Source: Verrucomicrobiia bacterium (GTDB taxonomy: Bacteria > Verrucomicrobiota > Verrucomicrobiia > Palsa-1439). Taken from it: a stretch of DNA of 64,000 nucleotides. The stretch covers positions 1,004-65,003 of the forward strand of contig JBEKFI010000001.1 of NCBI GenBank assembly GCA_050013395.1, read 5' to 3'. Below the pieces are notes generated by a model. It did not search any database and had not been told where the DNA came from. It was given only the letters and a program-made list of their open reading frames with translations. Both the position numbers and the translations under genes were made by a program. Below, in pieces: positions 3,773-30,960 of the stretch; position 1 is the first letter of the stretch; every line of letters starts with the position of its first letter.

Positions 3773-3904
3773 CGTTGTAACCTCCTGTCCCGTCGGCCGT
3801 CTGTCGCGCAAAACTGACGGCTGAGAGCCGACAGATGAAGGCAATCCCCTCTTAATCGTAACGGCCTCCGTTTTCGCAACTGCTTACTCAACCCATTTAC
3901 AGAA

Positions 3905-6607: not shown

Positions 6608-7076
6608 GGCGTGATTACGACTACCGGAACCGGAGCCAACGCGCCAGCGCAAAGCGTCGCGCCGAAACCGACGGTCTCGCGGGGGCACCGCCAACCTGTA
6701 CCTCAACCCAAATCGATTGCCGCTTTCAGATTCCGAGGCAGGGGTCAAGGCAGGGGTCAGGCAGGGGTCAGCTCGATTTTCATAATGCCGCGCAGGTTGA
6801 ACTAAGAACAATCGAACTGACCCCTTCTCGGCCTCGTCATACTGCTGCGCCTCCATGAGTTTGGCCAGCCAATGCCCCTCCCGGGTTGGTCCCAGCACCG
6901 CGACTCTCCGGTCCCGGTGATTCACCGCCTGCAATTGCTGCCGGACGTTTGCGATCGCCTGCTGAATCTGCGTTGGATCTTTGCTGTTGAGCTGCTGGGC
7001 AATTAGGTCCGTCGAACACTGGCTTTTGCCACGGCGGTCGCGCCGCGTGATTTCGCGCAGTGACTCCGGATAGAGA
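6608..7076 (-). pseudogene. Partial duplicate of the small secreted protein gene, fused in-frame upstream of the aminopropyltransferase gene
   Basis: cgcctgctgaatctgcg is shared with 3621. The translation ...DPTQIQQAIANVRQQ...RDRRVAVLGPTREGHWLAKLMEAQQYDEA parallels ...DATQIQQAVANIWEKL...DDRKVAVQGWPD/GHWLAGLMKAGRYDEA. It lacks a signal peptide and begins directly after a stop. Confidence 0.45.
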
Positions 7077-7128
7077 TCAGAAACTCAACTGACAATTTGG
7101 CGGTGAAGCGGCGGCATCTGACAGTTTG

Positions 7129-8274
7129 TCATCGTTCACCGCCTGTTTGTTGCGGATGCGGCACGCCATAGATGTCGATATGATACGGGCGGCCGCCGAA
7201 CGTGGTGTTGCGCTCGGAGAAATAGCCCAGCAGGCCGAAGACGAGCGCCAGCACCAAAGCGGCCACACCGATGCTCACGGCAACGGGGCGCTTTTTCGGA
7301 TGACGCTCGGGACTTCGGTCGAGGAATGGCCAAACCAGCAACAGCAACGGCGGAATCAGGGACACAAACAGGCCGAGCGTCTTTGGAAAATACTTCAGCA
7401 ACTGATACGTGGACAGGAAGTACCACTCCGGCTTGATGCCTTCGGGCGTCACGAACGGATCGGCTTTCTCTCCCAATTCGACCGGCCAGAGCACGATCAA
7501 CGTTACCAGCGCGCCGACGAGCAGGCTGAAGACCACGCCCTCCTTCAAGACGTGGTGGGGGAAAAACGGGACGCCGTTCTTCTTATCGATCGGTTTTTCT
7601 TCACCGACCCGCTCCAACGTGGCCAACCCCTGCACGCGCATCAGGAACAGATGCGCGACAATCAACATCGTCAGCACCCACGGCAGGATCACGACGTGCA
7701 ACACGTAGAACCGGGCCAGCGTCTCGCCCGTGACGCCTTCGCCACCGCGCAGCAGCAGCTTCATATACTGGCCTGCCAGCGGAATCGCGCCGGTGATTTC
7801 GGTGCCGACGGTAGTGGCCCAATACGAAAGCTGGTTCCACGGCAGCAGGTAGCCGGTAAAACCGAACGTGATGGTGCAACCAAAGATAAACACGCCCAGC
7901 ACCCAGGTCAGCTCCCGTGGTTTCTTGTACGCGCCCATGAAATAGGTGCGCATCATGTGCACCAGCACGCACAGAATCATCAACGTCGCCCCCCAGGCAT
8001 GCAGCCCGCGGATCAGCCAGCCGAAATGCGCCTTGGTCATGATGAAACGCACGCTCTCGAACGCGGTGTTCGTCGTCGGCCGGTAGTAAATCATCAGCAG
8101 AATGCCGGTGACGACCTGGTTGACGAACAGAAACAGCGACAGGCTGCCGAACGTATGCCAGAAGCCCGTTTCCTTGGGCAGCGGTTTGTGCACCTGCTCA
8201 TCGACGAACTTCTCCACCACGCCGATGTCAACGCGTTGGCCCAACCAGGCGCGGAGCTTTGGGTAGAGACTCAT
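7129..8274 (-). CDS. Cytochrome b (bc/b6f-type, fused b6 plus subunit IV)
   Basis: Multi-TM protein with conserved haem-ligand His helices and the PEWY-like motif IKPEWYFL. Confidence 0.85.
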   Translation of the reverse strand: MSLYPKLRAWLGQRVDIGVVEKFVDEQVHKPLPKETGFWHTFGSLSLFLFVNQVVTGILLMIYYRPTTNTAFESVRFIMTKAHFGWLIRGLHAWGATLMILCVLVHMMRTYFMGAYKKPRELTWVLGVFIFGCTITFGFTGYLLPWNQLSYWATTVGTEITGAIPLAGQYMKLLLRGGEGVTGETLARFYVLHVVILPWVLTMLIVAHLFLMRVQGLATLERVGEEKPIDKKNGVPFFPHHVLKEGVVFSLLVGALVTLIVLWPVELGEKADPFVTPEGIKPEWYFLSTYQLLKYFPKTLGLFVSLIPPLLLLVWPFLDRSPERHPKKRPVAVSIGVAALVLALVFGLLGYFSERNTTFGGRPYHIDIYGVPHPQQTGGER

Positions 8275-8295
8275 CGCGGTGTCGTTGTAGCCGCG

Positions 8296-8330
8296 CTTCC
8301 CTGCCCCGAAAGCTTTCGGGGTGAATGAAG
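8296..8330. repeat. Hairpin repeat module CCCCGAAAGCTTTCGGGG (inverted copy of 12015-12048)
   Basis: cttccctgccccgaaagctttcggggtgaatgaag is the reverse complement of cattcaccccgaaagccttcggggcagggagatg. Confidence 0.7.
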
Positions 8331-8413
8331 CGCGGGCCGTTCGGTTGCGGCGGGCGTTCGGCGCTTCGCAGAAGCGCCGCTACACGAGCAATGATTGCGT
8401 TCGCGCGTGCGGC

Positions 8414-8851
8414 TCATGCGGATTTCACCATCACTTCCCCGTTGACGACCATCACGCCCTGCTTGGCCAGCGGTCGCGGCGGCGGACCGGAAACGGGGCG
8501 GCCGTTGGTGTCGAAGAATCCCGCGTGACACGGACAAGCAATTTGCCGCCGCTGCGCATCCCAGCCAACGATGCAACCGAGGTGCGTACAGATGGCCGAG
8601 AACGCACCAAAACCCTGTGGCGTACGGATCACAATGACCGGATGCCCGTTGACGGCAACGATTTTCGTCTGCCATTCAGCGAAGTCCGCTGCCTTGCCCG
8701 CCGAAACCGTCTGCACACCGGGTCCTCGGCGCTGCGCCGGCCAGACGTAGCTGAGCACCGGCGCGGCGAACGCAATCGCCCATGCGATCAGGCCGCCGGT
8801 TAACAGCCAGTCCAGAAACGTGCGACGCGAAATCTTTTGATTCTCGTTCAC
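8414..8851 (-). CDS. Rieske [2Fe-2S] protein with Tat signal
   Basis: SRRTFL twin-arginine motif; CTHLGC...CPCHAG cluster-binding boxes. Confidence 0.85.
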   Translation of the reverse strand: MNENQKISRRTFLDWLLTGGLIAWAIAFAAPVLSYVWPAQRRGPGVQTVSAGKAADFAEWQTKIVAVNGHPVIVIRTPQGFGAFSAICTHLGCIVGWDAQRRQIACPCHAGFFDTNGRPVSGPPPRPLAKQGVMVVNGEVMVKSA

Positions 8852-8861
8852 GACATCAGTG

Positions 8862-8942
8862 TTCGCATTGTAGCCGCGAAACTTTTTCGCGGCATCCTCC
8901 CGCGACCCACGCCTCGGCCGCGAAAAAGTTTCGCGGCTACAG
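8862..8942. repeat. REP-like palindrome TGTAGCCGCGAAAC...GTTTCGCGGCTACA
   Basis: Long inverted repeat between the Rieske and cytochrome c genes. The same arm sequence occurs at 43740-43768 and inside hypF at 63874-63935. Confidence 0.7.
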
Positions 8943-10172
8943 TCATTTCTTCTCCTCTATTTGCCGCCGTTTCGCCCAGAACAGCACCGCCATCACTATG
9001 GGGAACCCCCAAATCGGGCCGAGTGCGAGTCGTTTCCAGCGCTCGAACCGCTCCAAGCCCGAGATGTCCGTGAGCGCTTGGTTGAGAATCTCTCCGGAAT
9101 GCGCGGCCACAGGCTTCAGTTGTTGGAGAGAGAGCGTGTGCTGGAGCGCTTCCAGTTGCGTGACCTGCGTCTTGGCTTCCTGCAATGACAGTTGGTCATC
9201 GTCCGTCGCCAGACCACGCACAGTGGCGCCGTGGACTGTGGCGACCGCGTGTTCGTAGGCGCTTTGCTCTTTGCGGATCAGACCGGCCACCGCATCGCGC
9301 ACGCCTAGTTGTTTGGGGTTATTGGCGTGACACTGCACGCAACTCTCATCGAACAACGCGAGCGACGCTTTCTGGATTCCGTGATTGCCGTGGCAACTGA
9401 CGCATTCGCTGAACAACCCGGCTGTGGCCGCCTCTGCGTGAGGGCTTTTCTCGAACAACTCGCGCTGGCGGATGTGGCACTTGCCGCAGACTTGGCCGAC
9501 TTCCTTGGTGCCCGGCGGCGTCGCGCCGTGGTTGCCGTGGCAGGTGACGCAGGTCGGCGCGCTCAGGTCGACCTTCTCGAAGAGTAATTGGGCGTGATAA
9601 CTGGTCTTGTACTGCGTCACGACGTCAGCGGGCAGTTGATACTGCGCCATGAGCTTCGCGTCGCTGTGGCAGCGGCTGCAAGTCTGCGGAACGTTGGTTG
9701 GGTAGGTGCGGCTGGCCGGTGCCTTCGAGGAGAGAATATCGTGTACGCCGTGGCAATCGGTGCAAACGGCCGCGTTCTGGTCGTTGTGCTCGAACAGTTG
9801 CTCGCCGTGCTTGCTGGTCTTGTAACGGTCGAGTTGGTCGGTAGGCAGGCCGTACGGATTCATCCGGCGCACATCGCTGTGACAACTGGCACAGAGTTCA
9901 GCGATGCCGCGTTTGTTATCTGGCCGCTTAAAGTTGTCGGTAGCGTGCGCGGTCTCGTCGTTCACCTTGGGATCGCCGCCGTGGCAATCCACACACGTCA
10001 GCCCGGCCTGCGCGTGCCCGCTTTGCGCATAGAGCCCCTGCTCCTTGCCGTGGCATTTGAGACAAGAGATCTCTGCCGCTGGCGCGGCCATGACGGCAGC
10101 CAGCAACACCAGCGCCACGCCGATCACATCGAGCCGCCGTTGTGGCAGTCGCTGCATTTTTGACCTTTCCAT
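8943..10172 (-). CDS. Multihaem c-type cytochrome (about 9 CxxCH) with C-terminal membrane anchor
   Basis: Nine CxxCH motifs counted in the translation, an N-terminal signal and a C-terminal hydrophobic helix. Confidence 0.8.
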   Translation of the reverse strand: MERSKMQRLPQRRLDVIGVALVLLAAVMAAPAAEISCLKCHGKEQGLYAQSGHAQAGLTCVDCHGGDPKVNDETAHATDNFKRPDNKRGIAELCASCHSDVRRMNPYGLPTDQLDRYKTSKHGEQLFEHNDQNAAVCTDCHGVHDILSSKAPASRTYPTNVPQTCSRCHSDAKLMAQYQLPADVVTQYKTSYHAQLLFEKVDLSAPTCVTCHGNHGATPPGTKEVGQVCGKCHIRQRELFEKSPHAEAATAGLFSECVSCHGNHGIQKASLALFDESCVQCHANNPKQLGVRDAVAGLIRKEQSAYEHAVATVHGATVRGLATDDDQLSLQEAKTQVTQLEALQHTLSLQQLKPVAAHSGEILNQALTDISGLERFERWKRLALGPIWGFPIVMAVLFWAKRRQIEEKK

Positions 10173-11635
10173 GCGTCGGCTAGATCCTCCGACGGATGTT
10201 GAAATTCAAATCCCTGGGCGCTGAGCGTTTTCAAGTCCGTCCCCGCTCCCTGGGCGATAATCGTATGGCAACTGTTGCAGTCAACAGAAATCGTCTTGCC
10301 CTCGGCACTGGCGTGCTGGCCGTCGTGGCACCGGAAACAGCCGGACCATTCAAGGTGGCCAATGTTGTTGGGATAGACCTTCCAGCGCGATTTCATTTCG
10401 GGGAAGAAGTTCGCCTGGTAGATCTTCTGGAGTTCGGCGATGGCGCGCTGGACGGTCGCGGGGTTGGCCGACGCGTACTTCTTCGTCAGCAGGTCGGTGA
10501 TTTTCTGCAGGGCCTCGGTGGTGGTCTGGTACTCGGCGGCCAGCGCGTCGACGGCGTTTTTCTTGATCGAGGGCAACGCCGGATCAATCCGCCCCAACGC
10601 CATCGCGGAGTCCACCGCCTCGTCGGGCGAGCGGAAGATGTGCGTGGGCCGGTTGTGGCAGTCAATGCAGTCCATCCGCCGCACGGATGCGCCGGCCAAC
10701 TGTGCAGGCTTCAGTTTGTTCTCTTTCGCCTCGTACACGGTGGCGTTGCCCTTGGAATCCGTGAAGCGAATCCAAGCGATCTTCTGCCGCGCTTCGTCTG
10801 TCGCGATGTACTCAACCTTGTTGGCGACGTTCATGTGCCAGTGGATGCCGCCGACCGGCCCATGCGTCGGATCGCCGCCGCCCACCTTGAGCAACAGTTC
10901 CACCGTCCACGGGCTGTTCTTCTCGTCGTACTTGAAATGCGTGCTGACCTTTTCGACGGCGCCGTAGAATTTCTGCGGCCAGTGGCATTGTTCGCAGGTC
11001 TCCTGAGCCGGGCGGAGGTTTTTCACAGGGATCGGAATCGGCCGCGGATACTTGTCAAACAGAGTCGCATAGACCTGGTAACTGCCGGACAATTTGGAGC
11101 GCACGAACCACGTCGCACCGGAACCGATATGACATTCCGTGCAGGTGACGCGTGTGTGTGGCGAGTTCTGGTAGGCGGTGAACTCGGGCCGCATCACCGC
11201 GTGACAGGTCCGTCCGCAGAACTGCGTCGATTCGGTGAAATGATAACTGCGATAGCTGCCAATGGCTGTCAGCAGGAAAAATACGACCGCGAATCCGCCC
11301 AAGCTGCCGAGCAGTTTGCGGTGCCGGGGCCGGTTCAGATCGATGATGGGAAACAGTGTCAGTGCGACGCGGCCACGCTGCACCAACCGATGGCGTTCCA
11401 TGATGATGCCGACAACAACCAGAATGAGTCCGGTAATCAAAAAGAAGGGGGCGACGAAGTAGGTCAGGATGCCCATGTACGGATTGCTGAACTGGGCAAA
11501 GAAATCCATCGCCAACAGACAAAGAACAGCGAAAAAACTGCCGGCCGCCACAATCAACCCCAGCAGACTCAGCCAATTGTGAATCAGCGATGGTGCCTTG
11601 GGCGGCCACGGGCTCGTATTTGCGCTGTCATCCAT
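10124..11635 (-). CDS. Membrane-anchored multihaem cytochrome c (NapC/NirT/NrfH-like, about 7 CxxCH)
   Basis: Two N-terminal TM helices followed by seven CxxCH motifs. Confidence 0.75.
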   Translation of the reverse strand: MDDSANTSPWPPKAPSLIHNWLSLLGLIVAAGSFFAVLCLLAMDFFAQFSNPYMGILTYFVAPFFLITGLILVVVGIIMERHRLVQRGRVALTLFPIIDLNRPRHRKLLGSLGGFAVVFFLLTAIGSYRSYHFTESTQFCGRTCHAVMRPEFTAYQNSPHTRVTCTECHIGSGATWFVRSKLSGSYQVYATLFDKYPRPIPIPVKNLRPAQETCEQCHWPQKFYGAVEKVSTHFKYDEKNSPWTVELLLKVGGGDPTHGPVGGIHWHMNVANKVEYIATDEARQKIAWIRFTDSKGNATVYEAKENKLKPAQLAGASVRRMDCIDCHNRPTHIFRSPDEAVDSAMALGRIDPALPSIKKNAVDALAAEYQTTTEALQKITDLLTKKYASANPATVQRAIAELQKIYQANFFPEMKSRWKVYPNNIGHLEWSGCFRCHDGQHASAEGKTISVDCNSCHTIIAQGAGTDLKTLSAQGFEFQHPSEDLADAWKGQKCSDCHNGGSM

Positions 11636-12624: not shown

Positions 12625-13236
12625 ATGAAAACAGTCTTCAGATTGATCTGCCTGATCGCGGCCACTTTGCTGTTGACCTTCAACTCAGCCCGCGCCCATT
12701 GCGACACCATGGACGGGCCGGTCGTCACAACGGCGAAGGCCGCGCTCGAAAAGGGCGACGTCAGCCCCGTGCTCAAGTGGGTGAAGCCCGAAGGCGAAGC
12801 TGAAATTCGCGACGCGTTCAAGAAAACGATTGCCGTTCGCAAGCAAAGTACCGAAGCGAAAGAACTCGCCGACCGTTACTTCTTCGAAACGCTCGTCCGC
12901 GTCCACCGCGCCGGCGAAGGCGAACCGTTCACCGGTCTGAAACCGAGCGGGACACCTCTCGAACCGGGCATCGCTGGCACCGACAAGGCGCTGGAGAAAG
13001 GTTCTGTGGACGACCTGGTGAAAGAGCTGACCGGGGCCGTTTCCGACGGCGTCAAGAAACGGTTCACTCGCGCCGCCGAGGCGAAGAAGCATGCCGACCA
13101 GAACGTTGAATCCGGCCGCGAGTACGTCGAAGCGTACGTGGAATTCGTCCACTACGTCGAGAACCTCCACGCCGCTGCCGCGATTTCATCCGTCCACAGC
13201 GGCGCGGCACAGCCCGAAATCGCACACCATCACTAA
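12625..13236 (+). CDS. Secreted protein of unknown function (signal peptide; mature N-terminus HCDTMDGP; C-terminal HHH)
   Basis: Signal peptide followed by a charged helical domain. Confidence 0.5.
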   Translation: MKTVFRLICLIAATLLLTFNSARAHCDTMDGPVVTTAKAALEKGDVSPVLKWVKPEGEAEIRDAFKKTIAVRKQSTEAKELADRYFFETLVRVHRAGEGEPFTGLKPSGTPLEPGIAGTDKALEKGSVDDLVKELTGAVSDGVKKRFTRAAEAKKHADQNVESGREYVEAYVEFVHYVENLHAAAAISSVHSGAAQPEIAHHH

Positions 13237-13250
13237 TCAGAGAAGCGGAT

Positions 13251-13598
13251 ATGAAAGACAGCAAGAAACCCAAAACCACGACCGCGCTCGCCGCGCAAGC
13301 CGCTTGGGCAGCCGACCTGGTGGATTACCAGTCCGACGCGATCGTCAGCCGCGAGGTGCTGAAGAAGAAAACTGGTTCAGTCACGCTGTTTGCCTTCGAC
13401 GCCGGGCAGGGATTGAGCGAACACACCGCGCCGTTCGACGCCCTGATCCAGGTGCTCGACGGCGAGGCTGAGATCACCATCGCCGGCAAGCGCCACCGTG
13501 TCCGGGCGGGTGAGTTGATCCTGATGCCCGCAAACCGGCCACACGCCCTGAAAGCCGTCCAACGCTTCAAAATGATGCTGATCATGATCCGGTCGTGA
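13251..13598 (+). CDS. Cupin-domain protein
   Basis: GxxxxHxH-like cupin core (GQGLSEHTAP...GELILMPANRPHAL). Confidence 0.6.
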   Translation: MKDSKKPKTTTALAAQAAWAADLVDYQSDAIVSREVLKKKTGSVTLFAFDAGQGLSEHTAPFDALIQVLDGEAEITIAGKRHRVRAGELILMPANRPHALKAVQRFKMMLIMIRS

Positions 13599-14040
13599 AG
13601 AATGACCAGCTTGCCCACTAACAAAGGCTCGTGACGAATGCGAGTTTGGGCGGAGCGCTGACGTGAAGAATGAAGACGGAAGGATGAGGGATGAAGACCG
13701 AGGACGGAAAACTGACGACCGAAACACTTCGTGGGAGCGGCCACGTGAAACGTGCTAAACATTCCTGCCGCGACCGGACAACAATTCTCTCCGAGCAATC
13801 GATATCCCAACCGTCATGCTCGTCAGATACCTAGTAGTACGAGGTATCGCACGCACACAAGCGGTAGATGAACGGAGAGGCATCGGAAGACGCGACGCAG
13901 CCCGATAACGATTTCACGTTTCAAGTTGCCCTCGCTACCTCTAATCATGCTCTCTCAGTCTTCAGAATCGAAGTGCAGCGTTATCGCTGGCGGTGGAGGC
14001 GGGCAACGTGGTACAACATGGGCACGACGGGAAAAAACCG

Positions 14041-15597
14041 ATGAGCGGCAAACGAAGAGTGTTCGCCATGACTGGTGTCACCGCAATCGCGGCATTGATG
14101 ATCCTCGCTGCGGCTTGCGACGGACAACGTGCGCCGGAGAAACAGGCAGCCGCACCGGCTGCCTCAAAACGGATCCGTGAGCCTGCTGTCGCCGGGCTGT
14201 TCTATCCGAAAGATCAAGCTACGCTGTCGCAAACCCTCGACGCGTTGCTGGCCCAGGCGAAGACGCACACGATCGACGGTGAACTGCGCGCTTTGATCTG
14301 TCCGCACGCCGGGTATCCGTATTCGGGGCCGGTCGCGGCGACGGCGTACCGGTTATTGTCGGGTCACGATTTCCAAACGGTTGTGCTTTTGGCGGTGAGC
14401 CACTACGCGGGATTTGCCAGCGCGTCGGTGGCCAATGCGGATGTGTACCGCACGCCGCTAGGCGACGTGCCGGTCTCGCCGAAGGCCCGGGAACTGGCGA
14501 AATCCAATCCGTTCGTGCTCGAACCGCGCTGCTTGGTACAGCGACCGCCATGGTCGTCGCAGGCGTCGCACCCCGTACCGCCCCCGGGCGAGGACACACC
14601 GGAGACGTGGGAGCATTCCGGTGAGGTGCAGGTGCCGTTCCTCCAAAAGACGCTGAAGAATTTCGCGCTCGTGCCCGTCGTTACCGGTGAAGCCGACCCG
14701 GAGAAAATGGCGCGCGTCTTGGCTGGTCAAGTGGACGACAAGACGCTGGTATTGGCGAGCACCGACCTGAGCCACTATCACCCGTACGACGAAGCGCGCG
14801 CGAAGGACAAGGTCACCACCGATGCCATCGTCAATCTCGACATCGACCGCATGAAGTCGTCCGGCGACGCCTGCGGCAAGACGCCGGTGCTGGCGTTGAT
14901 GTATCTCGCCAAACAAAAAGGCTGGAAAGCCACTCTGCTCGATTACCGCAACAGCGGCGATACCGCCGGCAACAAGGACGCCGTTGTCGGTTACGCCGCG
15001 ATCGCCTTCTACTCGCCGCGACAACAGAGTTTCATAAAACCGGAACGCAAACTTCTGTTGGATCTGGCGCGGCGGTCTCTCCGCGAAGTTGTGAAAACCG
15101 GCAAGCTGCCCGAGGTCGCCACCGACGCGTATCCCGCCAAGTTCACCGAGAAGAAAGGTTGTTTCGTCACATTGACCGAGCGCGGCCAGTTGCGCGGTTG
15201 CATCGGTCATATCCTGCCGCAGGAACCGCTGTACAAAGCGATCATGGACAACGCGCAAAGCGCGGCGCTGCACGACTACCGGTTCAGCCCCGTCCGGCCC
15301 AACGAACTCGACAAGATCGAGATCGAAATCAGCGTGCTGACCGTGCCCGAGCCGCTGACGTTCAGTTCACCCGACGACCTGCTGAACAAGCTCCAACCGC
15401 ACAAGGATGGCGTCGTCCTGCAAATCGGTAGACGCGGTGCAACGTATCTGCCACAGGTCTGGGAACAGATCCCCGACAAGGTACAGTTTATGAATTCCCT
15501 TGCCGAAAAAGCCGGTTGCCCGCCCGACGCCTGGCGCGGCCCCGGCACCAAAGTCCTCATCTACCACGTCGAATCCTTCAAAGAATCGGAGATGTAA
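14041..15597 (+). CDS. AmmeMemoRadiSam system fusion: Memo-like protein B plus AMMECR1 protein A, with lipoprotein-type signal peptide
   Basis: LICPHAGYPYSGPVAATAY (Memo family) then KGCFVTLTERGQLRGCIGHILP (AMMECR1). The N-terminus MSGKRRVFAMTGVTAIAALMILAAAC ends in a lipobox-like LAAAC. Confidence 0.8.
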   Translation: MSGKRRVFAMTGVTAIAALMILAAACDGQRAPEKQAAAPAASKRIREPAVAGLFYPKDQATLSQTLDALLAQAKTHTIDGELRALICPHAGYPYSGPVAATAYRLLSGHDFQTVVLLAVSHYAGFASASVANADVYRTPLGDVPVSPKARELAKSNPFVLEPRCLVQRPPWSSQASHPVPPPGEDTPETWEHSGEVQVPFLQKTLKNFALVPVVTGEADPEKMARVLAGQVDDKTLVLASTDLSHYHPYDEARAKDKVTTDAIVNLDIDRMKSSGDACGKTPVLALMYLAKQKGWKATLLDYRNSGDTAGNKDAVVGYAAIAFYSPRQQSFIKPERKLLLDLARRSLREVVKTGKLPEVATDAYPAKFTEKKGCFVTLTERGQLRGCIGHILPQEPLYKAIMDNAQSAALHDYRFSPVRPNELDKIEIEISVLTVPEPLTFSSPDDLLNKLQPHKDGVVLQIGRRGATYLPQVWEQIPDKVQFMNSLAEKAGCPPDAWRGPGTKVLIYHVESFKESEM

Positions 15598-15650: not shown

Positions 15651-16439
15651 TTAAAGACCGTTTTGGGGCAATTGTTTCTTTCGATACTCGTCAATGTAGA
15701 TCGTCATCGGCTCGGGCGTCACGTCACGATACAGTCCCATCTTGAAATAAAAACGGCTGGGGTTGGCATATCCGGTCCGGTCATTCTCGGGATAGGCGTT
15801 GAGGCCTTTATAATCAACAATCTGTTTGTCGCCAAGCCACGCTCTGATTCGCCCGTTTTCGGTGGTCGAAAAACGAATCTGAAACTTGAAATCGAGCCAT
15901 CTGCCCCGCAGGTCTTCTTTGGTTTCAAAAAGAGTCGTTCGATGGGGGCCGATCTGATGGGTGATTCTGAGCACGCCGGAAACGTATCGGATGGCAACCA
16001 CCGGACTGTCGTCCGAACAATTGCCGCCGGGACAGTATTGCTTCCATTGCGCGATGACCAGCCGCGTCGGCACGATTGGAAAATTCGTCGGGATGAACAT
16101 GCTGAAGGAAAACTCGTAAGCTTCGTTTTCCTTCGAGGTCAGCTTTCTCGCCTCCAACAATTCCGCCCGCTCGCTATCCCGGCTGCCGTTAATTCCCGCT
16201 TCAAATTTATCATGGGTGTGAACAGTTATTCTTGCCGCGCCGCGGCCTGTGCGGAAAATGTTCGTCTGCATCTGCACCGCGCCGGGAACGAATCTGTCGG
16301 TGTCCCAAACCTTGCTCAAGTAGGACGTTTCAAAACCGTCTTAAACATCAAGGGCCGGCACGGACGCAATGGTGTCCTGGGCGCGGGAAATGCCGCCTGA
16401 TAGAAGCGAAAGGCCGGCGACCAACCAGAAAATGAAATT
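15651..16439 (-). pseudogene. PL7-like (beta-jelly-roll) polysaccharide lyase gene with in-frame TAA between signal peptide and mature domain
   Basis: RAEL, QWKQ and YFKMGLYRD motifs. The signal-peptide ORF MLKLNFIFWLVAGLSLLSGGISRAQDTIASVPALDV is in the same frame as the catalytic domain and separated from it by TAA at 16341-16343. Confidence 0.5.
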
Positions 16440-17053
16440 CAACTTCAACATAATTCGGTTTTGATTTTTTCGATTGTAACTTCGCCATGCGTATCATGCA
16501 ATGGACGATGACTAATAGGAAACTGTTTTTGGAGCGCAGGGGAGCGAGACGGGGTCCGAACAGGGGGGTTATCAAAACGAAAAAGAGAGGCCGGTAACTG
16601 TGATCCTAGAATGTCCTCCGACTCCTGGCCCACGAGGTAACTGTCTCTGCCATGTAGGCGTCGGTGACTAACCGCGTCCATTTCCTCTCCCTGGTCGTGG
16701 TGTATAAACCCCGTGAGGTCGGGACAGCAAGCAGAAAAAGACCAAGAAGACCAAAGCGGGATGACCCGACCGTGCGTTTGCACTGAGGTTTTGGCGGACA
16801 ACTCAGCCGCCTTGAAGAAACCGCCGGGCTGCTTGGAGAAACTCGCGGGCAGTGCGCGGACATCTCGGCGCCATCACCAGCGGAGACACTAACCAATTTT
16901 CGTCGCAGCTTCGTCTGCAATCCGCTATTCGTTTAAGATGTTACCCTGAGTGGAGTGAAGGGTCTCGGTCGTCGGGAGGTTCGGAAACGGCAGAGATTTG
17001 CCGTCACACGACGGACGGCCCGCAGCGGTTTCGCCCGCCACTGGGGGATCAGA

Positions 17054-19645
17054 ATGACAAACAGTAGACAAGTTGCGGCCCGGTCCAATGGACGACTCAT
17101 CATCTTGGCAGTCGGCGCGCTCGGTTTCTCTTCCGTCATTACGCAGTTGGCGTTAATGCGGGAGATGCTGGGAGCGTTTGCGGGCAACGAGATGGCGTTG
17201 GGAATCATTCTCGGCAACTGGCTGCTGTTGACGGGAATCGGCGCGTGGCTCGGCCGGACCAGCAACCGTCTCCGCAATCCACGACTCTTGCTCGTACTCT
17301 TACTCTTGCTCGTCGCTCTCCTGCCGCTGGCGCAGGTGTATCTGCTTCGAACATTGCGCGATGTGGTGTTCGTCCGGGGCGCATTGGTCGGCGTGACTGA
17401 GACGATCCTGGCAAGTTTTGTCCTGTTGTTGCCTTACTGCATCGTGTCCGGATTTCTGCTGACGCTGGCGTGCGCGATTGTGGGAGCGGCGTCCCCGCCG
17501 CGATGTGTAGGGGCCGGTCGCGGCGGGGACGCCGCTCCCACGAGTACAGAGGAAATTGGGGCGTCCGGTATTGGCCGGGTGTATGTCGCGGACAGCGTCG
17601 GCAGCATTGCCGGTGGTGTGCTGTTCAGCTTCGTCCTCGTCCGATGGTTGGATCATTTCGCCATGCTGTATCTGCCGGCCCTGCTGAATCTCATGATGGC
17701 GGGAGTTCTGGCGTGGAACTACAGTGGCGACGAACGAATTGTTGGCCGCGAAGCCGAAGACGCCGCTCGTCGTGAAGCGGCAAAGGCACAAGAAGACGCA
17801 AAAGGAAGCATTGCCTCTTCCGTTTTTGCGACACTTTGCGCCTTTTTGCGGCAATTGATCTGTCGTCGATGGTTGCTCGTTTGTGTTGTGACGGTCATCA
17901 CGCTGGCGGTAGTGGCACTGATGTTCCTCACCGACATGGATGCAGTTTCGACGGCGCGGCAGTTTGCGGGACAGAAGATTGTTTTCAGGAAGAATTCGCC
18001 TTACGGCAAGCTCATCGTGACGGAATCGGCGGGACAATTCAACTTCATCGAGAACGGCCTGCCGATCATCTCGACGCACAACGTCGAGCAGGTGGAAGAA
18101 ACCGTTCACTACGCCATGGCGCAGCGGCCCGACGCGCGCAAGGTGTTGCTGGTGTCGGGCGGCGTGTCGGGAACGGCGAAAGAAATCCTGAAGTACGGTG
18201 TGAGCGAGGTGACCTACGTGGAACTCGACCCGCTCATCATCGAGGCGGGACGGAAGTACCTGCCGGACAGCCTGGCCGACCCGCGGATCAAGGTGGTCAA
18301 CACGGATGGACGGCTGTTTGTGAGAGAGGTAGGGCGCGACCGCCGGGCGCGCCGTGGTCCCGACGAAAGCGGGCGGCCCGGCGGTCCGCCCCTACCGGAA
18401 GTGGGTTGCGATGTGGTGATTGTGGACGTGCTTGCGCCGTCCACATCGCAGATCAACCGGTTCTATACCGCCGAGTTTTTCGGCGAGGTCAAACTAATAT
18501 TGACGCCGGGCGGCGTGCTTTCTCTGTCGCTGGGGCGTTACGAAAACTACGTCAGCAAAGAACTGGCACGAATGCTGGCATCGGCTCATGCGACGTTGAG
18601 GCAATCGTTCCGAAACGTGCTCGTGATTCCGGGCGGACGCGTTTTCTTTCTGGCATCGGATGGCGAACTCTTTCCTGATATTGCGGCACGAATCGAGCAA
18701 CGGCGCATCCCGACGCAGTTGGTGAATCGGCATTACCTCGATGCGATGTTGACGCCCGACCGGATAAGCGATCTGCAGCGGGCGATGGCGCAAACTGCAG
18801 CCGTGAACAGGGATTTCAGCCCGGTCTTATACTATTACCATTTGATGCACTGGATGAGCCAGTTCAAGGTCAGGTTCGGTGTTCTGGAGACGGCGTTGCT
18901 GGTCGCGCTCGCGGTTTATCTGTTCACGATTCGTCCGGTGCCGCTGGCAATCTTCGTGTCGGGATTAGCGGCGTCGGCGCTTGAGGTCGTGTTGTTGCTC
19001 GGTTTCCAGATTCTTTACGGCTCGGTCTATGGGCAATTGGGAATCATCGTCACGATGTTCATGGCAGGGTTGGCGGTCGGAGCGTGGGTGGGAAACCGGG
19101 GCCTGATGCGCAACGACACGAACCCTCACCCTGGCCCCCGGTCGCCTCTGGCGCCGCCTACGGCGGGTAAACCTCTCCCTTCGCGGAAGGGAGAGGGAAA
19201 TTTCTCTCCCACGTCATCGGGGGAGAGGATCAAGGTGAGGGGGCAAGCTGTTCATACCGGAGATTGGGAGGCGATGCGTCTTTTGGCCGTGCTCGCCTTC
19301 GCCATTGCCGGGTTGTCGGTGCTGGTGCCGCTGGTGTTGATGGCGCTGGGACGACTGGGCGGGACGACAACCGGCCTTGTGACGGTGCGGGTGGTGATTG
19401 CTTTGTTGACGTTTGTTCTGGCAATGTTGGTCGGCATGGAGTTTCCAGTCGCTTCTCAAGTGGAGTTTGTCGGTCGTGCCGCCACTGCGTCGCGGTTGTA
19501 CACGGCCGATTTCGTCGGCGCATCTCTGGGTGCGTTGCTGGCGAGCACGTTTCTGATTCCGTTGATCGGCGTGACGGCGGTGTGTCTGCTGACGGCGGGA
19601 CTGAACGTCATCGGCGGAGCGGTCGTTTTGTTGAGAAGACAATAG
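17054..19645 (+). CDS. Spermidine-synthase-like aminopropyltransferase with N- and C-terminal polytopic membrane domains, carrying three in-frame repeat insertions
   Basis: VLLVSGGVSGTAKE...VVIVDV...GGVLSLSLG methyltransferase fold flanked by many TM helices. Confidence 0.75.
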   Translation: MTNSRQVAARSNGRLIILAVGALGFSSVITQLALMREMLGAFAGNEMALGIILGNWLLLTGIGAWLGRTSNRLRNPRLLLVLLLLLVALLPLAQVYLLRTLRDVVFVRGALVGVTETILASFVLLLPYCIVSGFLLTLACAIVGAASPPRCVGAGRGGDAAPTSTEEIGASGIGRVYVADSVGSIAGGVLFSFVLVRWLDHFAMLYLPALLNLMMAGVLAWNYSGDERIVGREAEDAARREAAKAQEDAKGSIASSVFATLCAFLRQLICRRWLLVCVVTVITLAVVALMFLTDMDAVSTARQFAGQKIVFRKNSPYGKLIVTESAGQFNFIENGLPIISTHNVEQVEETVHYAMAQRPDARKVLLVSGGVSGTAKEILKYGVSEVTYVELDPLIIEAGRKYLPDSLADPRIKVVNTDGRLFVREVGRDRRARRGPDESGRPGGPPLPEVGCDVVIVDVLAPSTSQINRFYTAEFFGEVKLILTPGGVLSLSLGRYENYVSKELARMLASAHATLRQSFRNVLVIPGGRVFFLASDGELFPDIAARIEQRRIPTQLVNRHYLDAMLTPDRISDLQRAMAQTAAVNRDFSPVLYYYHLMHWMSQFKVRFGVLETALLVALAVYLFTIRPVPLAIFVSGLAASALEVVLLLGFQILYGSVYGQLGIIVTMFMAGLAVGAWVGNRGLMRNDTNPHPGPRSPLAPPTAGKPLPSRKGEGNFSPTSSGERIKVRGQAVHTGDWEAMRLLAVLAFAIAGLSVLVPLVLMALGRLGGTTTGLVTVRVVIALLTFVLAMLVGMEFPVASQVEFVGRAATASRLYTADFVGASLGALLASTFLIPLIGVTAVCLLTAGLNVIGGAVVLLRRQ
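17481..17540. repeat. Perfect 23-bp inverted repeat with 14-nt loop (60 bp) inside the CDS
   Basis: tgggagcggcgtccccgccgcga / tcgcggcggggacgccgctccca; the length is a multiple of 3. Confidence 0.7.
18328..18396. repeat. GGTAGGGCGCGACC...GGTCCGCCCCTACC palindromic element, 69 bp, in-frame in the CDS
   Basis: Same family as 60779-60848; partial copies at 49338-49376 and 54046-54060. Confidence 0.75.
19140..19244. repeat. Composite NPHP/GEG/GERIKVRG hairpin repeat, 105 bp, in-frame in the CDS
   Basis: gaaccctcaccctgg...cctctcccttcgcggaagggagaggg...ctcccacgtcatcgggggagaggatcaaggtgaggggg. The same modules flank the DUF559 genes. Confidence 0.75.
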
Positions 19646-20020
19646 AAGACGTTCTTCATCAACCACGAAGTGCACAGCGCGGCAGAGCTGCAACCACAAC
19701 AACTACAATTGCCGCAAAGAGGCGCAAGGAACGCAAGAAACGGCGGGGCGGTTGCGGTCGTTTTCGTTCTTGCTGCTCAAACCCTGCCGGGCGTATTCTC
19801 GGCACCGTGAGGAAAGGAGATTTACCTCATTTTACGAGGCGAACGAACCAGGCGAACCAATAACTCAAAACCACCCCGAGAACTTTCGGGATGAAATTCG
19901 CGTAGCTTCGGCTGCTGTCCAGAAAGAAGCTTGGAGCTTTGTGACAACAAGCAGCGATGGAAGTGCGCCCCACTTTGTTTGGGCACAGGTGAACCCCACA
20001 AGTGCCAGAGGAGAACGGAT

Positions 20021-21925
20021 ATGAAAGCGCGTTCGAGGCTGATTGCGGCCAGCACGCTCATTTGTCTCATCGGCATTCCGGGTGTTTGTCAGGCTGCGCC
20101 CATACACGACGCGGCAGCGAACGGTGATCTTGCAGAGGTCGCGGAGTTTCTCAAGGCAAACACTTCGGTGGTGAATGCCCGAGATGCCGCTGAGCGGACG
20201 CCCCTGCATTATGCGGCGCTCAAAGGGCACAAGGAAGTGGCTGATCTACTCTTGGCCAACGGTGCTGATGCCAATGCTCGGTCCAGTGACGGCAGCACAC
20301 TGCTTCACTTAGCTGCCGGCAATGGTAATAAAGAAGTCGTAGAGGTCTTGCTCAGCAAGGGCGCTGATGCGCATGCCGAAGACGAATCGGGCAAGACCCC
20401 AGCGGTTCGTGCAGAGCAAGGAGGTCACGGTGATCTGGCCGGTCTGCTACTGGATTGCTTCACATTGAAAGAACTCCCTTCGGAGCGGAAAGAAGAAATT
20501 GATCGAGAACTTAGAAAATATGTCGGGGTCGACAAGGGCGAATCCCAAATCGTCGATGCCACCAATCTGGTATACAGTGTCTTTGGGTATTCCGAACAGG
20601 GTGATGAAGTCGACACGAAGACATACCGTTCGACGGGCAAGAAGGGACAAGTTTTCTACGGATACTACGTATCTATTGAGAAGATAAGGCCCGGCGAATC
20701 GATGGGTATAGTCGACGACAAAGGCGTGTTTCATCCCGCTATGAAAGTCGTGAAACACAAAGCGGTGGTGAGGGAGGACTCCGTGCTTTTTCTGAAGGAT
20801 AGTGAAAGGTATGTGTATCACAATGGACAATGGTATGTTTGTGCTAGGAAGGAGCGCGAGAAATCGAGCGCAGCAGCGCTTGATAGTGCAACTTTACGCG
20901 ACTCTCATCCGACTGGAAATGCAGCGGCGAAACCAATAGAGAAACAGACCGTGACTCTGATTGAGGTTCCTACGGGAATGAACGTAACAGAAGCGATAGG
21001 GTCCGGGGCAGGGAAACGCGAGGTAGGGCAGGCGCAGAGCACACCCAGCCAAGGTCGAACATTGGGCGAGTCCTATCTACTGAAAGGCACTCCCGTACAA
21101 TTGGGAAACCGAGTCTGGTTCAACTGGGTGCGGATACGCAAACAAACAAGCGATCAAGGTGAGCGAGCTTACCGGTTTTCCGTACCCGAAGGGCAGTTGG
21201 CGTACAAGTACCTCCAAGAGCATGATGGGCAGATACAAATAGCTGAGGTTTACCCGGGTGGGCGCAACGTATTCGAGATGCCGGAGATAGTGATCCGGGC
21301 AAAGCAAGTTTCGATCAACATGGAGACCACAGGCTTGAAACAGCAGATGGGACAAGACCTAATGCGCATTTTGAGCGAACAAGGACTGGTCAAGAACAAT
21401 GATCTGCTCGATGATGTGATCTTTGTCGCGGCTCGTTTCGCAAAGGTCGAAACAGACTTTGATGTCACTCACTGGATTCCGAAAGTCTCCCTTTCTTTTG
21501 AGTCGGCCAAACCTACCAGTGGCCTTTGGCCGAGGGATCAGGGACCTGCGGTACAAACCGCGTTCGAAGCGTGGCAGATGAGGTACTTCGGCTGTGCCAA
21601 CTGTCCACAGGCGGCGCCGGATGCCGATCCCGACCGCGACGGGATAAGCAACAGGAACGAATTTCTGGCGGGCACTGATCCGGGCAACGAGGCATCGTCG
21701 CTGCGGATCCTTTCCGCCGTGAGAAACGGCGATGACGTTGTGATCACGTGGAGGACGGTGGGAGGGAGGACCAACGTGTTGCAGGCCACGGCTGGCGACA
21801 CGAACGCGTTTATGGACATCAGCAAAGCTATCATCATCGCTGGCACCGGTGACATCGTGACCAACTACATCGACCGTGGTGGCATAGGTCTTCACAAGTA
21901 TTACCGAATCCGCATCGAACCTTAG
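20021..21925 (+). CDS. Secreted ankyrin-repeat protein with large C-terminal domain (DPDRDG calcium-binding-like motif)
   Basis: Signal peptide, then several ankyrin repeats with the TPLHxAA/GH consensus; the segment is lower in GC. Confidence 0.7.
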   Translation: MKARSRLIAASTLICLIGIPGVCQAAPIHDAAANGDLAEVAEFLKANTSVVNARDAAERTPLHYAALKGHKEVADLLLANGADANARSSDGSTLLHLAAGNGNKEVVEVLLSKGADAHAEDESGKTPAVRAEQGGHGDLAGLLLDCFTLKELPSERKEEIDRELRKYVGVDKGESQIVDATNLVYSVFGYSEQGDEVDTKTYRSTGKKGQVFYGYYVSIEKIRPGESMGIVDDKGVFHPAMKVVKHKAVVREDSVLFLKDSERYVYHNGQWYVCARKEREKSSAAALDSATLRDSHPTGNAAAKPIEKQTVTLIEVPTGMNVTEAIGSGAGKREVGQAQSTPSQGRTLGESYLLKGTPVQLGNRVWFNWVRIRKQTSDQGERAYRFSVPEGQLAYKYLQEHDGQIQIAEVYPGGRNVFEMPEIVIRAKQVSINMETTGLKQQMGQDLMRILSEQGLVKNNDLLDDVIFVAARFAKVETDFDVTHWIPKVSLSFESAKPTSGLWPRDQGPAVQTAFEAWQMRYFGCANCPQAAPDADPDRDGISNRNEFLAGTDPGNEASSLRILSAVRNGDDVVITWRTVGGRTNVLQATAGDTNAFMDISKAIIIAGTGDIVTNYIDRGGIGLHKYYRIRIEP

Positions 21926-22243: not shown

Positions 22244-22492
22244 ATGAAAAGATTTGGTCACTATGCGATCAAGACGTTGCGGGTCACCAGTTGGCCGCTG
22301 CTGTTTTTGATGCTACTGTATTTGGTGACCGGATTCGCCATGAGCGGCCGGTTCGGGTTTGGAGTCCTGATGAACGAGAAGACAGCGCTTGCGTTTCACA
22401 AGGCGTTGCATGTGCCGTTGCTGATGTTGTTCCCGGTGCATGCTGTCTGCGCGGTTTATCTGGCGATGCGGAGATGGCGATGGATCAAATAG
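22244..22492 (+). CDS. Small two-TM membrane protein overlapping the start of the radical SAM gene
   Basis: Two hydrophobic helices; overlaps the next CDS by 19 bp. Confidence 0.45.
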   Translation: MKRFGHYAIKTLRVTSWPLLFLMLLYLVTGFAMSGRFGFGVLMNEKTALAFHKALHVPLLMLFPVHAVCAVYLAMRRWRWIK

Positions 22493-23817
22493 GGGAGAAT
22501 CCGAAATCGGAAATCCGAAGCCGAGCCACAGGCGAGACCTGCGCAGCAAATCCGAAACGGGTTGGGATCAGCCGGCGCGAGGCGATCGGGTACGGCGTTG
22601 CTGGTTTGGTCTGCCTGGCGGGAGCGAAAGGGCTGATCGACTATTTCCGGCGGTTCTTTGAGAGTGAGAGCCCCGCCGACATTTTCAAGGGCGACGCGCC
22701 GAGCGACGAAGTATGGGCGCTCTGGCAAAAGCGCGGTTGGACAAAAGAGGGTTACCACTACCTCAAGCTCGACCGCAACGTGCAGTGCAAGATCTGCCCG
22801 AACAATTGCATCCTCGCGCCCGGCGACCGCAGCCATTGCCGCAACCGGATCAACCGCAACGGCACGCTCCACACGCTGGCTTACGGCAACCCGTGCAGTT
22901 TTCACGTTGACCCGGTCGAGAAGAAACCGCTGTTCCATTTCCTGCCGGGCACCGCGTCGTTTTCGTTGGCGACCGCTGGTTGCGTGTTCCGTTGCCTGAA
23001 TTGCCAGAACTGGGAAATTTCGCAGAAGAAACCCGAGGAGACGAAGGACCCGCGCGGCCCGGAGTTTCGTTTGCGTCCGCCGGTCCCGGCGGCGTTGAGC
23101 ATGGAACAGATGGCGCGGCTGAGCATGTTCCCGGAAGACGTGGTGGCACTGGCCGGTGAACTGCGCTGTCCTTCGATTTCCTACACTTACTCCGAGCCGG
23201 TTGCCTTTTACGAGTACACGTACGACACGTGCAAGCTCGCCCGTGAGAAGAAAATCAGGAACATCATGGTGACGTGCGGCTCGATCGAAGAGCGGCCGCT
23301 CCGCGACCTGGCTCAATACGTGGACGCCGCACATGTTGATCTGAAGGGATTCGATGAGGACGTTTACTGGAAGCTGAACACAGGACGGCTCAAACCGATT
23401 CTCAACACCTTGAAGACGCTTCAGGACATGGGCGTGTGGTTTGAGATCATCAACCTCGTTGTCCCAACCTATACCGACAAACCGGACACAATCGCGCGGA
23501 TGTGTGATTGGCTGGTGGCGAACATCGGTCCGGATCATCCGATTCACTTCTCCCGGTTCCACCCCGCGCACAAACTCGAACACCTGCCACCGACGCCGGT
23601 GGAAACGCTGTTGCAGGCGCGCGCCATCGCGCAAAAGGCCGGCCTGCGCTACGTGTACGTCGGTAACGTCCGCGGCGTGCCCGACGTCGAAACCACGTTC
23701 TGCCCCGGCTGCAAACGCGCCATCATCGAACGCGACGTGTTTGCCATCACGAGCTTCAACATCGAAGCCGGCCACTGCAAGTTCTGCCAGACCAAGATTG
23801 CCGGCGTGTGGTCGTGA
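22474..23817 (+). CDS. AmmeMemoRadiSam system radical SAM enzyme with ~88-aa N-terminal extension containing an RR/hydrophobic (Tat-like or anchor) segment
   Basis: YHYLKLDRNVQCKICPNNC...GTLHTLAYGN and ATAGCVFRCLNCQNW (CxxxCxxC). The N-terminus reads SRREAIGYGVAGLVCLAGAKG. Part of the extension is encoded by a GAAATCCGAAA-type repeat. Confidence 0.75.
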   Translation: MAMDQIGENPKSEIRSRATGETCAANPKRVGISRREAIGYGVAGLVCLAGAKGLIDYFRRFFESESPADIFKGDAPSDEVWALWQKRGWTKEGYHYLKLDRNVQCKICPNNCILAPGDRSHCRNRINRNGTLHTLAYGNPCSFHVDPVEKKPLFHFLPGTASFSLATAGCVFRCLNCQNWEISQKKPEETKDPRGPEFRLRPPVPAALSMEQMARLSMFPEDVVALAGELRCPSISYTYSEPVAFYEYTYDTCKLAREKKIRNIMVTCGSIEERPLRDLAQYVDAAHVDLKGFDEDVYWKLNTGRLKPILNTLKTLQDMGVWFEIINLVVPTYTDKPDTIARMCDWLVANIGPDHPIHFSRFHPAHKLEHLPPTPVETLLQARAIAQKAGLRYVYVGNVRGVPDVETTFCPGCKRAIIERDVFAITSFNIEAGHCKFCQTKIAGVWS

Positions 23818-30409: not shown

Positions 30410-30411
30410 CT

Positions 30412-30921: not shown

Positions 30922-30960
30922 GTGCGCGCGCAGGGTGATGGAATGCCTCTAAGTTCTTCT

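Follow-up and report, generated by a model that had tools for sequence, protein, structure and literature searches.

The Amr locus

The window analysed here, a 64,000-nucleotide stretch of contig JBEKFI010000001.1 (assembly GCA_050013395.1) from a Verrucomicrobiia bacterium, encodes an AmmeMemoRadiSam (Amr) system, in which a fusion of Memo (AmrB) and AMMECR1 (AmrA), referred to hereafter as AmrAB, and the radical S-adenosylmethionine (SAM) enzyme AmrS both begin with predicted export signals. Conservation of AMMECR1 and Memo extends from archaea to humans, and both have been linked to human disease; radical SAM enzymes, which depend on SAM and a low-potential reductant, are for that reason assumed to work in the cytoplasm. 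A first-pass annotation of this DNA, which had already suspected export, held that Amr proteins are generally taken to be cytoplasmic, and this matches the standing functional prediction for the prokaryotic system, RNA base modification (PMC2034487). The genes and features of the system are as follows.

14041-15597, + strand: amrAB, Memo (AmrB)-AMMECR1 (AmrA) fusion, 518 residues, predicted pre-lipoprotein (family models, homologue starts)
14041-14118, + strand: predicted AmrAB signal peptide (residues 1-25) and lipobox Cys26, LAAA-C (sequence, homologue conservation)
14179-15003, + strand: Memo domain, residues 47-321, with motifs PHAGY, SH, DLSH and ACG (Pfam)
15061-15579, + strand: AMMECR1 domain, residues 341-513, with motif LRGCIGH (Pfam)
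16955-19645, + strand: SpeE-like polytopic membrane protein, partner of exported Amr modules (start GTG 16955 or ATG 17054)
22244-22492, + strand: small two-helix membrane protein, 82 residues, its stop overlapping the amrS start
22474-23817, + strand: amrS, the AmmeMemoRadiSam radical SAM enzyme with an N-terminal predicted export signal, 447 residues (TIGR04337, AlphaFold)
22570-22626, + strand: twin-arginine motif S33-R-R-E-A-I38 and Gly/Ala-rich h-region A37-A51, ending A-G-A (sequence, homologues)
22627-22743, + strand: lineage-specific AmrS segment, residues 52-90, LIDYFRRFF...ADIFKGDAP..W..W..RGW (alignment, AlphaFold)
22981-23004, + strand: radical SAM cluster motif C170-x3-C174-x2-C177, invariant in our three alignments (A1-A3)

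The Memo-AMMECR1 fusion and its lipoprotein-type signal

The amrAB reading frame spans 13993-15597 (+), and the ATG at 14041 gives the 518-residue product. Family models account for both halves of the fusion: the Memo domain (Pfam, E 1.9e-50) scores 233.5 bits against the AmrB model TIGR04336 (cut-off 26) and resembles the human MEMO1 structures 3bcz and 7kq8, and the AMMECR1 domain (Pfam, E 6.9e-49) scores 199.9 bits over residues 338-513 against the AmrA model TIGR04335 (cut-off 99) and resembles the archaeal AMMECR1 structures 1zq7 and 1vaj. Ahead of these domains the N-terminus reads MSGKRRVFAMTGVTAIAALMILAAAC and continues, after the predicted boundary, as DGQRAPEKQAAAPAASKR, the latter beginning DGQ. 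Residues K4, R5 and R6 form an n-region, I16-I21 are uncharged and lead into L22-A-A-A-C26, and an Asp at position +2 of Cys26 precedes a Pro/Ala/Gln-rich linker that connects to the Memo domain. The lipobox rule (PROSITE PS51257) describes a Lys or Arg in the first 7 residues, an uncharged core, and [LVI..][AST..][GAS]-C with the Cys at ~15-35; AmrAB has the positive n-region, the uncharged core and L-A-A-A-C, with its Cys at 26.

This arrangement recurs across relatives. A hydrophobic N-terminal segment is present in 108 of 120 AmrAB homologues, 73 of these with a lipobox-like Cys, and the other 12 comprise eight start-truncated calls that retain the lipobox Cys and four that are N-truncated. 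A signal is retained in ~116 of these 120 closest homologues, though its type differs (lipobox or cleavable AxA), and no full-length N-terminus among the 120 lacks one. In some relatives an AxA-type cleavable signal stands in place of the lipobox (for example ...APRANA/AEAP in P0214 and P0222, the slash marking the boundary); a signal that changes type yet is always present fits an export function. The lipoprotein-type signal peptide that the first-pass annotation had read at this N-terminus is borne out by the KRR n-region, the hydrophobic core, LAAAC and its retention in homologues, and the swap between signal types reinforces that reading. We conclude that the AmrAB N-terminus is a conserved lipoprotein-type signal, with lipidation and cleavage predicted.

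A twin-arginine N-terminus on AmrS

AmrS scores 340.8 bits against TIGR04337 (cut-off 220). Signal-less AmrS proteins begin ~15-20 residues before CxxCPxxC (73 of ~125 usable representatives) and align with the window protein only from about residue 91, from which we derive an N-terminal extension of ~90 residues (the first-pass annotation gave ~88). Within this extension, residues 1-32 form a variable n-region ahead of the twin-arginine motif, residues 33-53 (SRREAIGYGVAGLVCLAGAKG) hold the motif and the h-region, and the segment spanning residues 52-90 is confined to Verrucomicrobiota and Planctomycetota relatives and from about residue 70 belongs to the folded domain. The RR column of the window protein aligns with the RR of relatives whose N-termini pass TIGR01409, a curated model of the twin-arginine translocation (Tat) signal.

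We compared the N-terminus with a close set of 121 AmrS sequences (66-89% identity, from Verrucomicrobiota metagenome bins). The RR and the uncharged stretch behind it are retained in 118 of the 121, the remaining three being N-truncated gene calls, and the stretch before the RR varies from 3 to 94 residues. The effective invariance of RR in the window's lineage argues that the signal is under selection. The homologue core has a median of 19 uncharged residues and a mean Kyte-Doolittle hydropathy of 1.5, which by sequence is typical of Tat signals and unlike stable anchors, and the net charge averages +3.5 ahead of the core and -1.2 over the 15 residues that follow, a balance that predicts an N-in/C-out orientation. 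The TatP-style pattern, RR.[FGAVML][LITMVF] near the N-terminus, is fitted by R34-R35-E-A-I of the window protein and by 76 of 97 automatically anchored homologues, and the window h-region counts 15 uncharged residues (A37-A51), where at least 13 are looked for. The first-pass alternatives of a Tat-like signal or a membrane anchor hold up, with RR in all but three of the close homologues.

The AlphaFold model of AmrS (mean predicted local distance difference test score, pLDDT, of 80) leaves residues 1-33 disordered, runs a low-confidence helix from 34 to 65 through the RR, the core and the juxtamembrane part, and becomes confident from about residue 70, where the helix EVWALWQKRG exceeds pLDDT 90. 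The signal may be cleaved at A-G-A or retained as a Tat-inserted anchor; either would place the enzyme outside the cytoplasm. A candidate lipobox in AmrS (G-L-V-C46) was rejected because Val is unfitting at -1. The radical SAM core carries a ~25-residue insertion (DPRGPEFRLRPPVPAALSMEQMARLS) at residues ~192-222 (window 23050-23140), shared among 34 aligned AmrS sequences only by P0242 and P0245.

Both extensions rest on the choice of start codon. In an annotation artefact, which the first-pass annotation had named as one way its proposal could fail, translation would start beyond the hydrophobic segments and neither protein would bear a signal; a TTG lies inside the AmrS hydrophobic core (~22606), a further ATG (14068) falls within the n-region of AmrAB, and gene calls for a few homologues in the databases begin at internal codons of this kind. 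Homologue starts speak for the upstream codons, however: AmrAB homologues begin MSGKR..., agreeing with ATG 14041, and AmrS homologues begin MAMDQ... or MDQ..., agreeing with ATG 22474/22480, and protein-level conservation of the extensions spans more than 100 homologues, relatives of each protein sharing them in the proportions given above. Starting at 14068 would still leave the hydrophobic core and lipobox of AmrAB intact; the conserved ADIFKGDAP..W..W segment of AmrS can be translated only from a start farther upstream, and from 22480 to the conserved core there is no further ATG; and the ATG of amrS overlaps the stop codon of the small gene before it, in the window and likewise in relatives. 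We regard the artefact as highly improbable.

Tat models, domain fusions and the orientation of AmrS

Equivalent N-termini of AmrS relatives pass curated Tat models: TIGR01409 (cut-off 16.7 bits) is passed by L022 (19.6), P0289 (17.4), P0345 (19.2), P0266 (16.8) and L049 (27.8), and the Rieske TAT-signal model PF10399 (cut-off 24) by L018 (24.8 bits). Other relatives carry AmrS as one part of a larger protein, these fusions all passing TIGR04337 at 362-416 bits. In P0251 and P0255 an N-terminal hydrophobic segment and an FMN_bind domain with the SGAT flavinylation motif precede AmrS with no membrane helix between; P0256 and P0276 join FMN_bind, a NapH-like Fer4_5 membrane module and one further helix to AmrS; P0258 places a signal and CBM_11, and P0272 a signal and a beta-propeller, ahead of it. 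DsbD_2 occurs with FMN_bind and Fer4_5 in P0259 and directly with AmrS in P0252 and P0257; we left the DsbD_2-AmrS fusions out of the topology argument, the orientation of the CcdA-type terminus not being fixed. P0269 is a triple fusion of a hydrophobic segment, AmrS, Memo and AMMECR1, with ambiguous flanking charges. Extracytosolic electron transfer is known to use signal-bearing FMN_bind domains and NapH-like proteins (PMC8238504). The fusions support AmrS domains working outside the cytoplasm, and the repeated evolutionary attachment of an outward electron supply. A metagenome scan for the neighbours of the FMN_bind-AmrS fusion P0255 (an ApbE among them being of interest) gave only cytoplasmic-type AmrS loci.

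An opposite orientation would leave the Amr proteins membrane-tethered and facing the cytoplasm, the AmrS N-terminus being either a vestigial Tat-like motif, of the sort found in cytoplasmic NarG, or an N-out/C-in anchor; in either case the enzyme would be kept at the inner membrane face, within reach of SAM and reductant. SAM and flavodoxin/ferredoxin are by general knowledge cytoplasmic, the TAT models do not recognize the motif of the window AmrS, the single long helix that AlphaFold gives for residues 34-65 is more anchor-like than a cleaved signal, and in P0269 the positive charges follow the hydrophobic segment rather than precede it. Yet the charge balance of +3.5/-1.2 predicts N-in/C-out, the core is Gly/Ala-rich and weakly hydrophobic in the manner of Tat signals, AmrS relatives pass TIGR01409, AmrS is found fused behind a signal with FMN_bind and behind a signal with CBM_11, and the lipobox or cleavable signals of AmrAB cannot be cytoplasmic anchors. 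A tether facing the cytoplasm appears unlikely to us on this evidence.

Operon organization and membrane partners

In relatives the operon runs amrAB, SpeE-like membrane protein, small His-bearing two-helix protein, amrS. This four-gene order is seen in L006, L005, L007, L009, L010, L168 and L169; the genes overlap tightly in L006 (at 11635, 13752 and 14006), and the Amr genes are contiguous in L006, L005, L169 and L003. In the window amrAB and amrS lie 7 kb apart because of two insertions, both outside the system.

15651-16319, - strand: polysaccharide lyase gene that interrupts the operon (present in the close relative L168, absent from L169)
19931-21925, + strand: ankyrin-repeat protein with a signal peptide, between the SpeE-like and small genes (window scan)

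The ankyrin-repeat gene is found in the window only, and no relative examined has this insertion (not L005, L006, L168 or L169).

The SpeE-like protein is laid out as ~7 transmembrane helices, a SpeE-like Rossmann domain (Pfam Spermine_synth, residues 382-526, E 1.8e-18) and ~7 further transmembrane helices. It falls below every NCBIfam SpeE cut-off (136.5 bits against 472; 34 against 40). The Asp of the catalytic 'D-P' motif of aminopropyltransferases is Ala in the window protein and is not conserved in the SpeE-like family, which does retain the nucleotide-binding Glu and Asp. Given the failed cut-offs and the loss of this Asp, we treat the domain as nucleotide-binding with an unassigned reaction. 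Hydropathy averaged over 36 SpeE-like homologues puts the strongly positive loops all on the opposite side of the membrane from the SpeE-like domain. The protein of Pirellulales (L084 12745-16632; L078 7182-11126) is extended by FMN_bind, which carries the flavinylation motif GAT, and a NapH-like Fer4_5, the AmrS of these loci having no signal; eight transmembrane helices separate the SpeE-like domain from FMN_bind in both, placing the two on the same side. Positive-inside parity together with these fusions predicts that the SpeE-like domain probably faces outward, to the periplasm.

The small protein has positive ends and two hydrophobic helices joined by a loop predicted to be periplasmic; H52 and H66 are invariant, and H56 almost invariant. 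It measures 82-94 residues in the operons of relatives and is encoded directly upstream of amrS in L003-L013, L015, L016, L168 and L169. A homologue search returned 32 close relatives only, all unannotated; the match to PF01292 (cytochrome b561/Ni_hydr_CYTB) is weak (16.6 bits against a cut-off of 30.1) and covers a protein of only two helices, and one relative carries a precomputed PF01292 match.

Distribution across phyla

We classified AmrS N-termini in the 150 best representatives at 50% identity: ~73 are short and signal-less, 25 are Tat-like by our rule, 13 have other extensions (several of them plainly Tat-like, for example SRRDFIKK), in 3 the N-terminus is strongly hydrophobic and 11 are long N-terminal fusions. 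A genome scan covering one genome per GTDB species, made with the small alignment A2 after the first, diverse alignment A1 had proved too divergent, yielded 80 loci that we analysed with our own hidden Markov models (HMMs). A recurrent module emerges, consisting of a signal-bearing Memo-AMMECR1, a SpeE-like membrane protein and a Tat-like AmrS, joined in some lineages by the small His-bearing protein; beyond Verrucomicrobiota it is found in Desulfobacterales, Bacteroidales, Ignavibacteriota, Omnitrophota, Planctomycetota, Fibrobacterota, Lentisphaerota and two archaeal bins. Among the 80 loci a SpeE-like neighbour accompanies 38 of 59 Tat-like AmrS against 6 of 21 signal-less ones, two of these six being second copies beside an exported module (Fisher test, odds ratio 4.5, p = 0.006; with loci that share ancestry, counts and test serve as description only). 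A Memo with a hydrophobic N-terminus is paired with 29 of 30 Tat-like AmrS. On a rough neighbour-joining tree of 210 AmrS cores we count ~11 switches between exported and cytoplasmic forms, showing signal presence to be a stable clade trait.

Lys-Arg consistently replaces RR in the AmrS of Bacteroidales and Ignavibacteriota, for example ISKREFIKK (L017, L020, L021, L024, L025, L031, L034, L039-L041, L050, L059, L060, L063, L064, L069 and L070). In L020 (nt 3844-11000) and L074 (nt 8649-11100) a signal-less AmrS adjoins an exported module with a Tat-like AmrS, in L020 together with a signal-less Memo, and these double Amr sets look like paralogues for two compartments. Two bins labelled archaeal hold a Tat-type AmrS, L016 (Aenigmatarchaeota, also with the small and SpeE-like proteins) and L049 (Altiarchaeota, with a lipobox-bearing Memo-AMMECR1), which may be real or a binning error.

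A probable extracytoplasmic Amr variant

By sequence, the signals of AmrAB and AmrS point to one compartment. We propose that the window encodes an extracytoplasmic AmmeMemoRadiSam variant acting on an envelope substrate, to which we give a probability of roughly 70%. That all three Amr enzymes are probably envelope-directed argues against RNA as the substrate of this subtype, and so against RNA-base modification as its function. The conserved operon with its two membrane proteins, the spread over several phyla and the fusion of AmrS to extracytosolic electron-transfer domains go beyond what the first-pass annotation had described.

Several observations weigh against this proposal. The chief weakness for the window AmrS is that the curated Tat models pass relatives and not the window sequence: none of TIGR01409, PF10518 and PF10399 matches its N-terminus or that of another Verrucomicrobial AmrS, P0050, and its motif is RR-E-A-I in place of the RR-x-F-L-K consensus. 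Recognition by signal models, on which the first-pass annotation had let its proposal depend, is in this way found for the equivalent N-termini of relatives and fails for the window protein itself. Our signal classes come from home-made regular expressions and hydropathy scans, and all sequences compared are metagenome assemblies. Scanning ~30 open reading frames of the 64-kb window revealed no tat genes among them. Neither SAM nor a low-potential reductant is known to be present in the periplasm. Finally, in L037, L078, L083 and L084 the AmrS starts at (V)KVQCELCP with no signal, next to a signal-bearing Memo-AMMECR1 and with the SpeE-like protein present, which indicates that the partners need not share a compartment.

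These four loci fit a split pathway, possible in some lineages, in which AmrS acts in or at the cytoplasm on a precursor that then crosses the membrane, perhaps via the polytopic SpeE-like protein, for AmrAB to finish outside, the signal on AmrS being a later and dispensable addition. A precedent of sorts exists in the HXS defence system, where a radical SAM enzyme reportedly matures a Tat-exported effector before export (PMC13128918). A dispensable signal sits poorly, however, with an RR that is effectively invariant in the window's lineage and hence under selection, with the pairing of 29 of 30 Tat-like AmrS with a signal-bearing Memo, and with a signal presence so stable by clade that the rough tree of 210 sequences needs only ~11 switches. 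For the window we find a split pathway improbable and favour the export of AmrAB and AmrS alike.

Comparison with known systems

The window system shares with the cytoplasmic-type AmmeMemoRadiSam system the passing of TIGR04335, TIGR04336 and TIGR04337, the CX3CX2C, Memo and AMMECR1 motifs, and linked genes; it differs in the export signals on all of its enzymes, the A-B fusion, the two extra conserved membrane partners, and the lineage-specific N-terminal segment and internal insertion of AmrS. A sequence search of solved structures found no AmrS. The nearest solved fold to the AmrS model is PFL-AE (PDB 3cb8; Foldseek E 1.3e-12, TM-score on target 0.74-0.77), at 18% identity. Unlike the glycyl-radical activases, whose NCBIfam models it matches weakly and far below the family cut-offs, AmrS lacks a glycyl-radical enzyme partner and carries additional Cys clusters at its N- and C-terminal ends; PFL-AE is a cytoplasmic enzyme without a signal, whereas the window AmrS is signal-bearing.

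The N-terminus of the window AmrS is reminiscent of Tat-exported Fe-S proteins (hydrogenase small subunits, Rieske proteins), in which RR and a weakly hydrophobic core likewise precede a cofactor-bearing passenger that folds before export. The N-termini of AmrS relatives match the Rieske model PF10399 and hydrogenase small-subunit models; the difference is that the passenger here is a radical SAM enzyme. Flavinylated extracytosolic electron-transfer systems (Meheust et al. 2021, PMC8238504) combine FMN_bind with NapH-like, NosR-like or DsbD-like proteins; modules of these systems are fused to other AmrS proteins, and in Pirellulales FMN_bind and Fer4_5 are fused to the SpeE-like partner; the window system is without these domains and has the small His-bearing hairpin protein instead. 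The main text of that study does not mention radical SAM, Memo or AMMECR1. With the membrane-bound polyamine aminopropyltransferase PRK03612 and the 'fused MFS/spermidine synthase' (NF037959), the SpeE-like partner has in common a Spermine_synth domain joined to a polytopic membrane domain, and it departs from them in falling below the cut-offs, in losing the 'D-P' Asp and in having its domain predicted to face the periplasm.

The searchable literature contained passing mentions only of AmmeMemoRadiSam and nothing relevant on exported, periplasmic or secreted radical SAM enzymes or on signal-bearing Amr proteins; the 2019 work of Burroughs et al., which reportedly extended the contexts of Memo to nucleotide-base and isoprenoid modification, lay outside this search and may note a secreted Memo or a SpeE-like neighbour. 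As far as checked, an envelope-directed Amr module with dedicated membrane partners is widespread and undescribed, parts of it possibly having been described before.

A proposed mechanism

We envisage Sec-dependent export of AmrAB and lipidation of Cys26, which would anchor the protein on the periplasmic side; the Asp at +2 would imply retention in the inner membrane if the E. coli rule applies. For AmrS, folding and Fe-S cluster insertion, perhaps with the binding of SAM, would take place in the cytoplasm before the Tat pathway exports the folded enzyme, whose signal would be either removed at A-G-A or retained as an N-terminal anchor. The nucleotide-binding SpeE-like domain would also face the periplasm, and the small protein, translationally coupled to amrS, would dock AmrS at the membrane and may pass electrons or metal to it. 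The Amr enzymes would act jointly on an envelope substrate (lipid, isoprenoid, glycan, polyamine-like molecule or protein), not RNA. SAM serves as a regenerated cofactor in lysine 2,3-aminomutase, and the simplest source here would be SAM bound before Tat export and regenerated in the same way; more speculatively, it could be supplied through the polytopic SpeE-like partner.

A bolder version of this scheme would make it the first radical SAM system outside the cytoplasm, with a Tat-exported AmrS performing radical chemistry in the periplasm and membrane proteins supplying both electrons and the adenosyl cofactor or substrate for envelope modification. Electrons would arrive via the small His-bearing hairpin, or in other lineages via the FMN_bind, NapH-like and DsbD-like fusions; the adenosyl cofactor or substrate would come via the outward-facing SpeE-like protein; and the lipid-anchored Memo-AMMECR1 would join AmrS in modifying an envelope lipid, glycan or protein. 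We offer this version tentatively, putting it somewhat short of even odds. An exported subfamily with all three Amr enzymes would narrow the search for the substrate to envelope molecules, and cultivable Bacteroidales or Desulfobacterales that carry the module offer tractable test systems. If true, a Tat-exported AmrS and relatives fused to electron conduits would prompt one to ask what powers radical chemistry beyond the cell membrane.

Neighbouring genes

Just upstream of amrAB lie genes for a DUF6448 protein with a signal peptide (12625-13236, +) and a small cupin (13251-13598, +); the cupin is also upstream in L168, and neither gene is found in more distant relatives. Away from the Amr genes, the window encodes another polytopic membrane protein that contains a Spermine_synth domain (1009 residues, 3905-6934, -), its gene adjoining those for a cytochrome b (7129-8274) and multihaem cytochromes c (8943-11635). 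In L169, where the operon is uninterrupted, adenosylhomocysteinase and SAM synthetase genes (5424-6692 and 18408-19592) lie within 10 kb on either side, which may be coincidence. Cytochrome bd oxidase subunits I and II are encoded at 29384-32388 (-) of the window and suggest a microaerobic lifestyle, which would be relevant to an oxygen-sensitive Fe-S enzyme in the periplasm.

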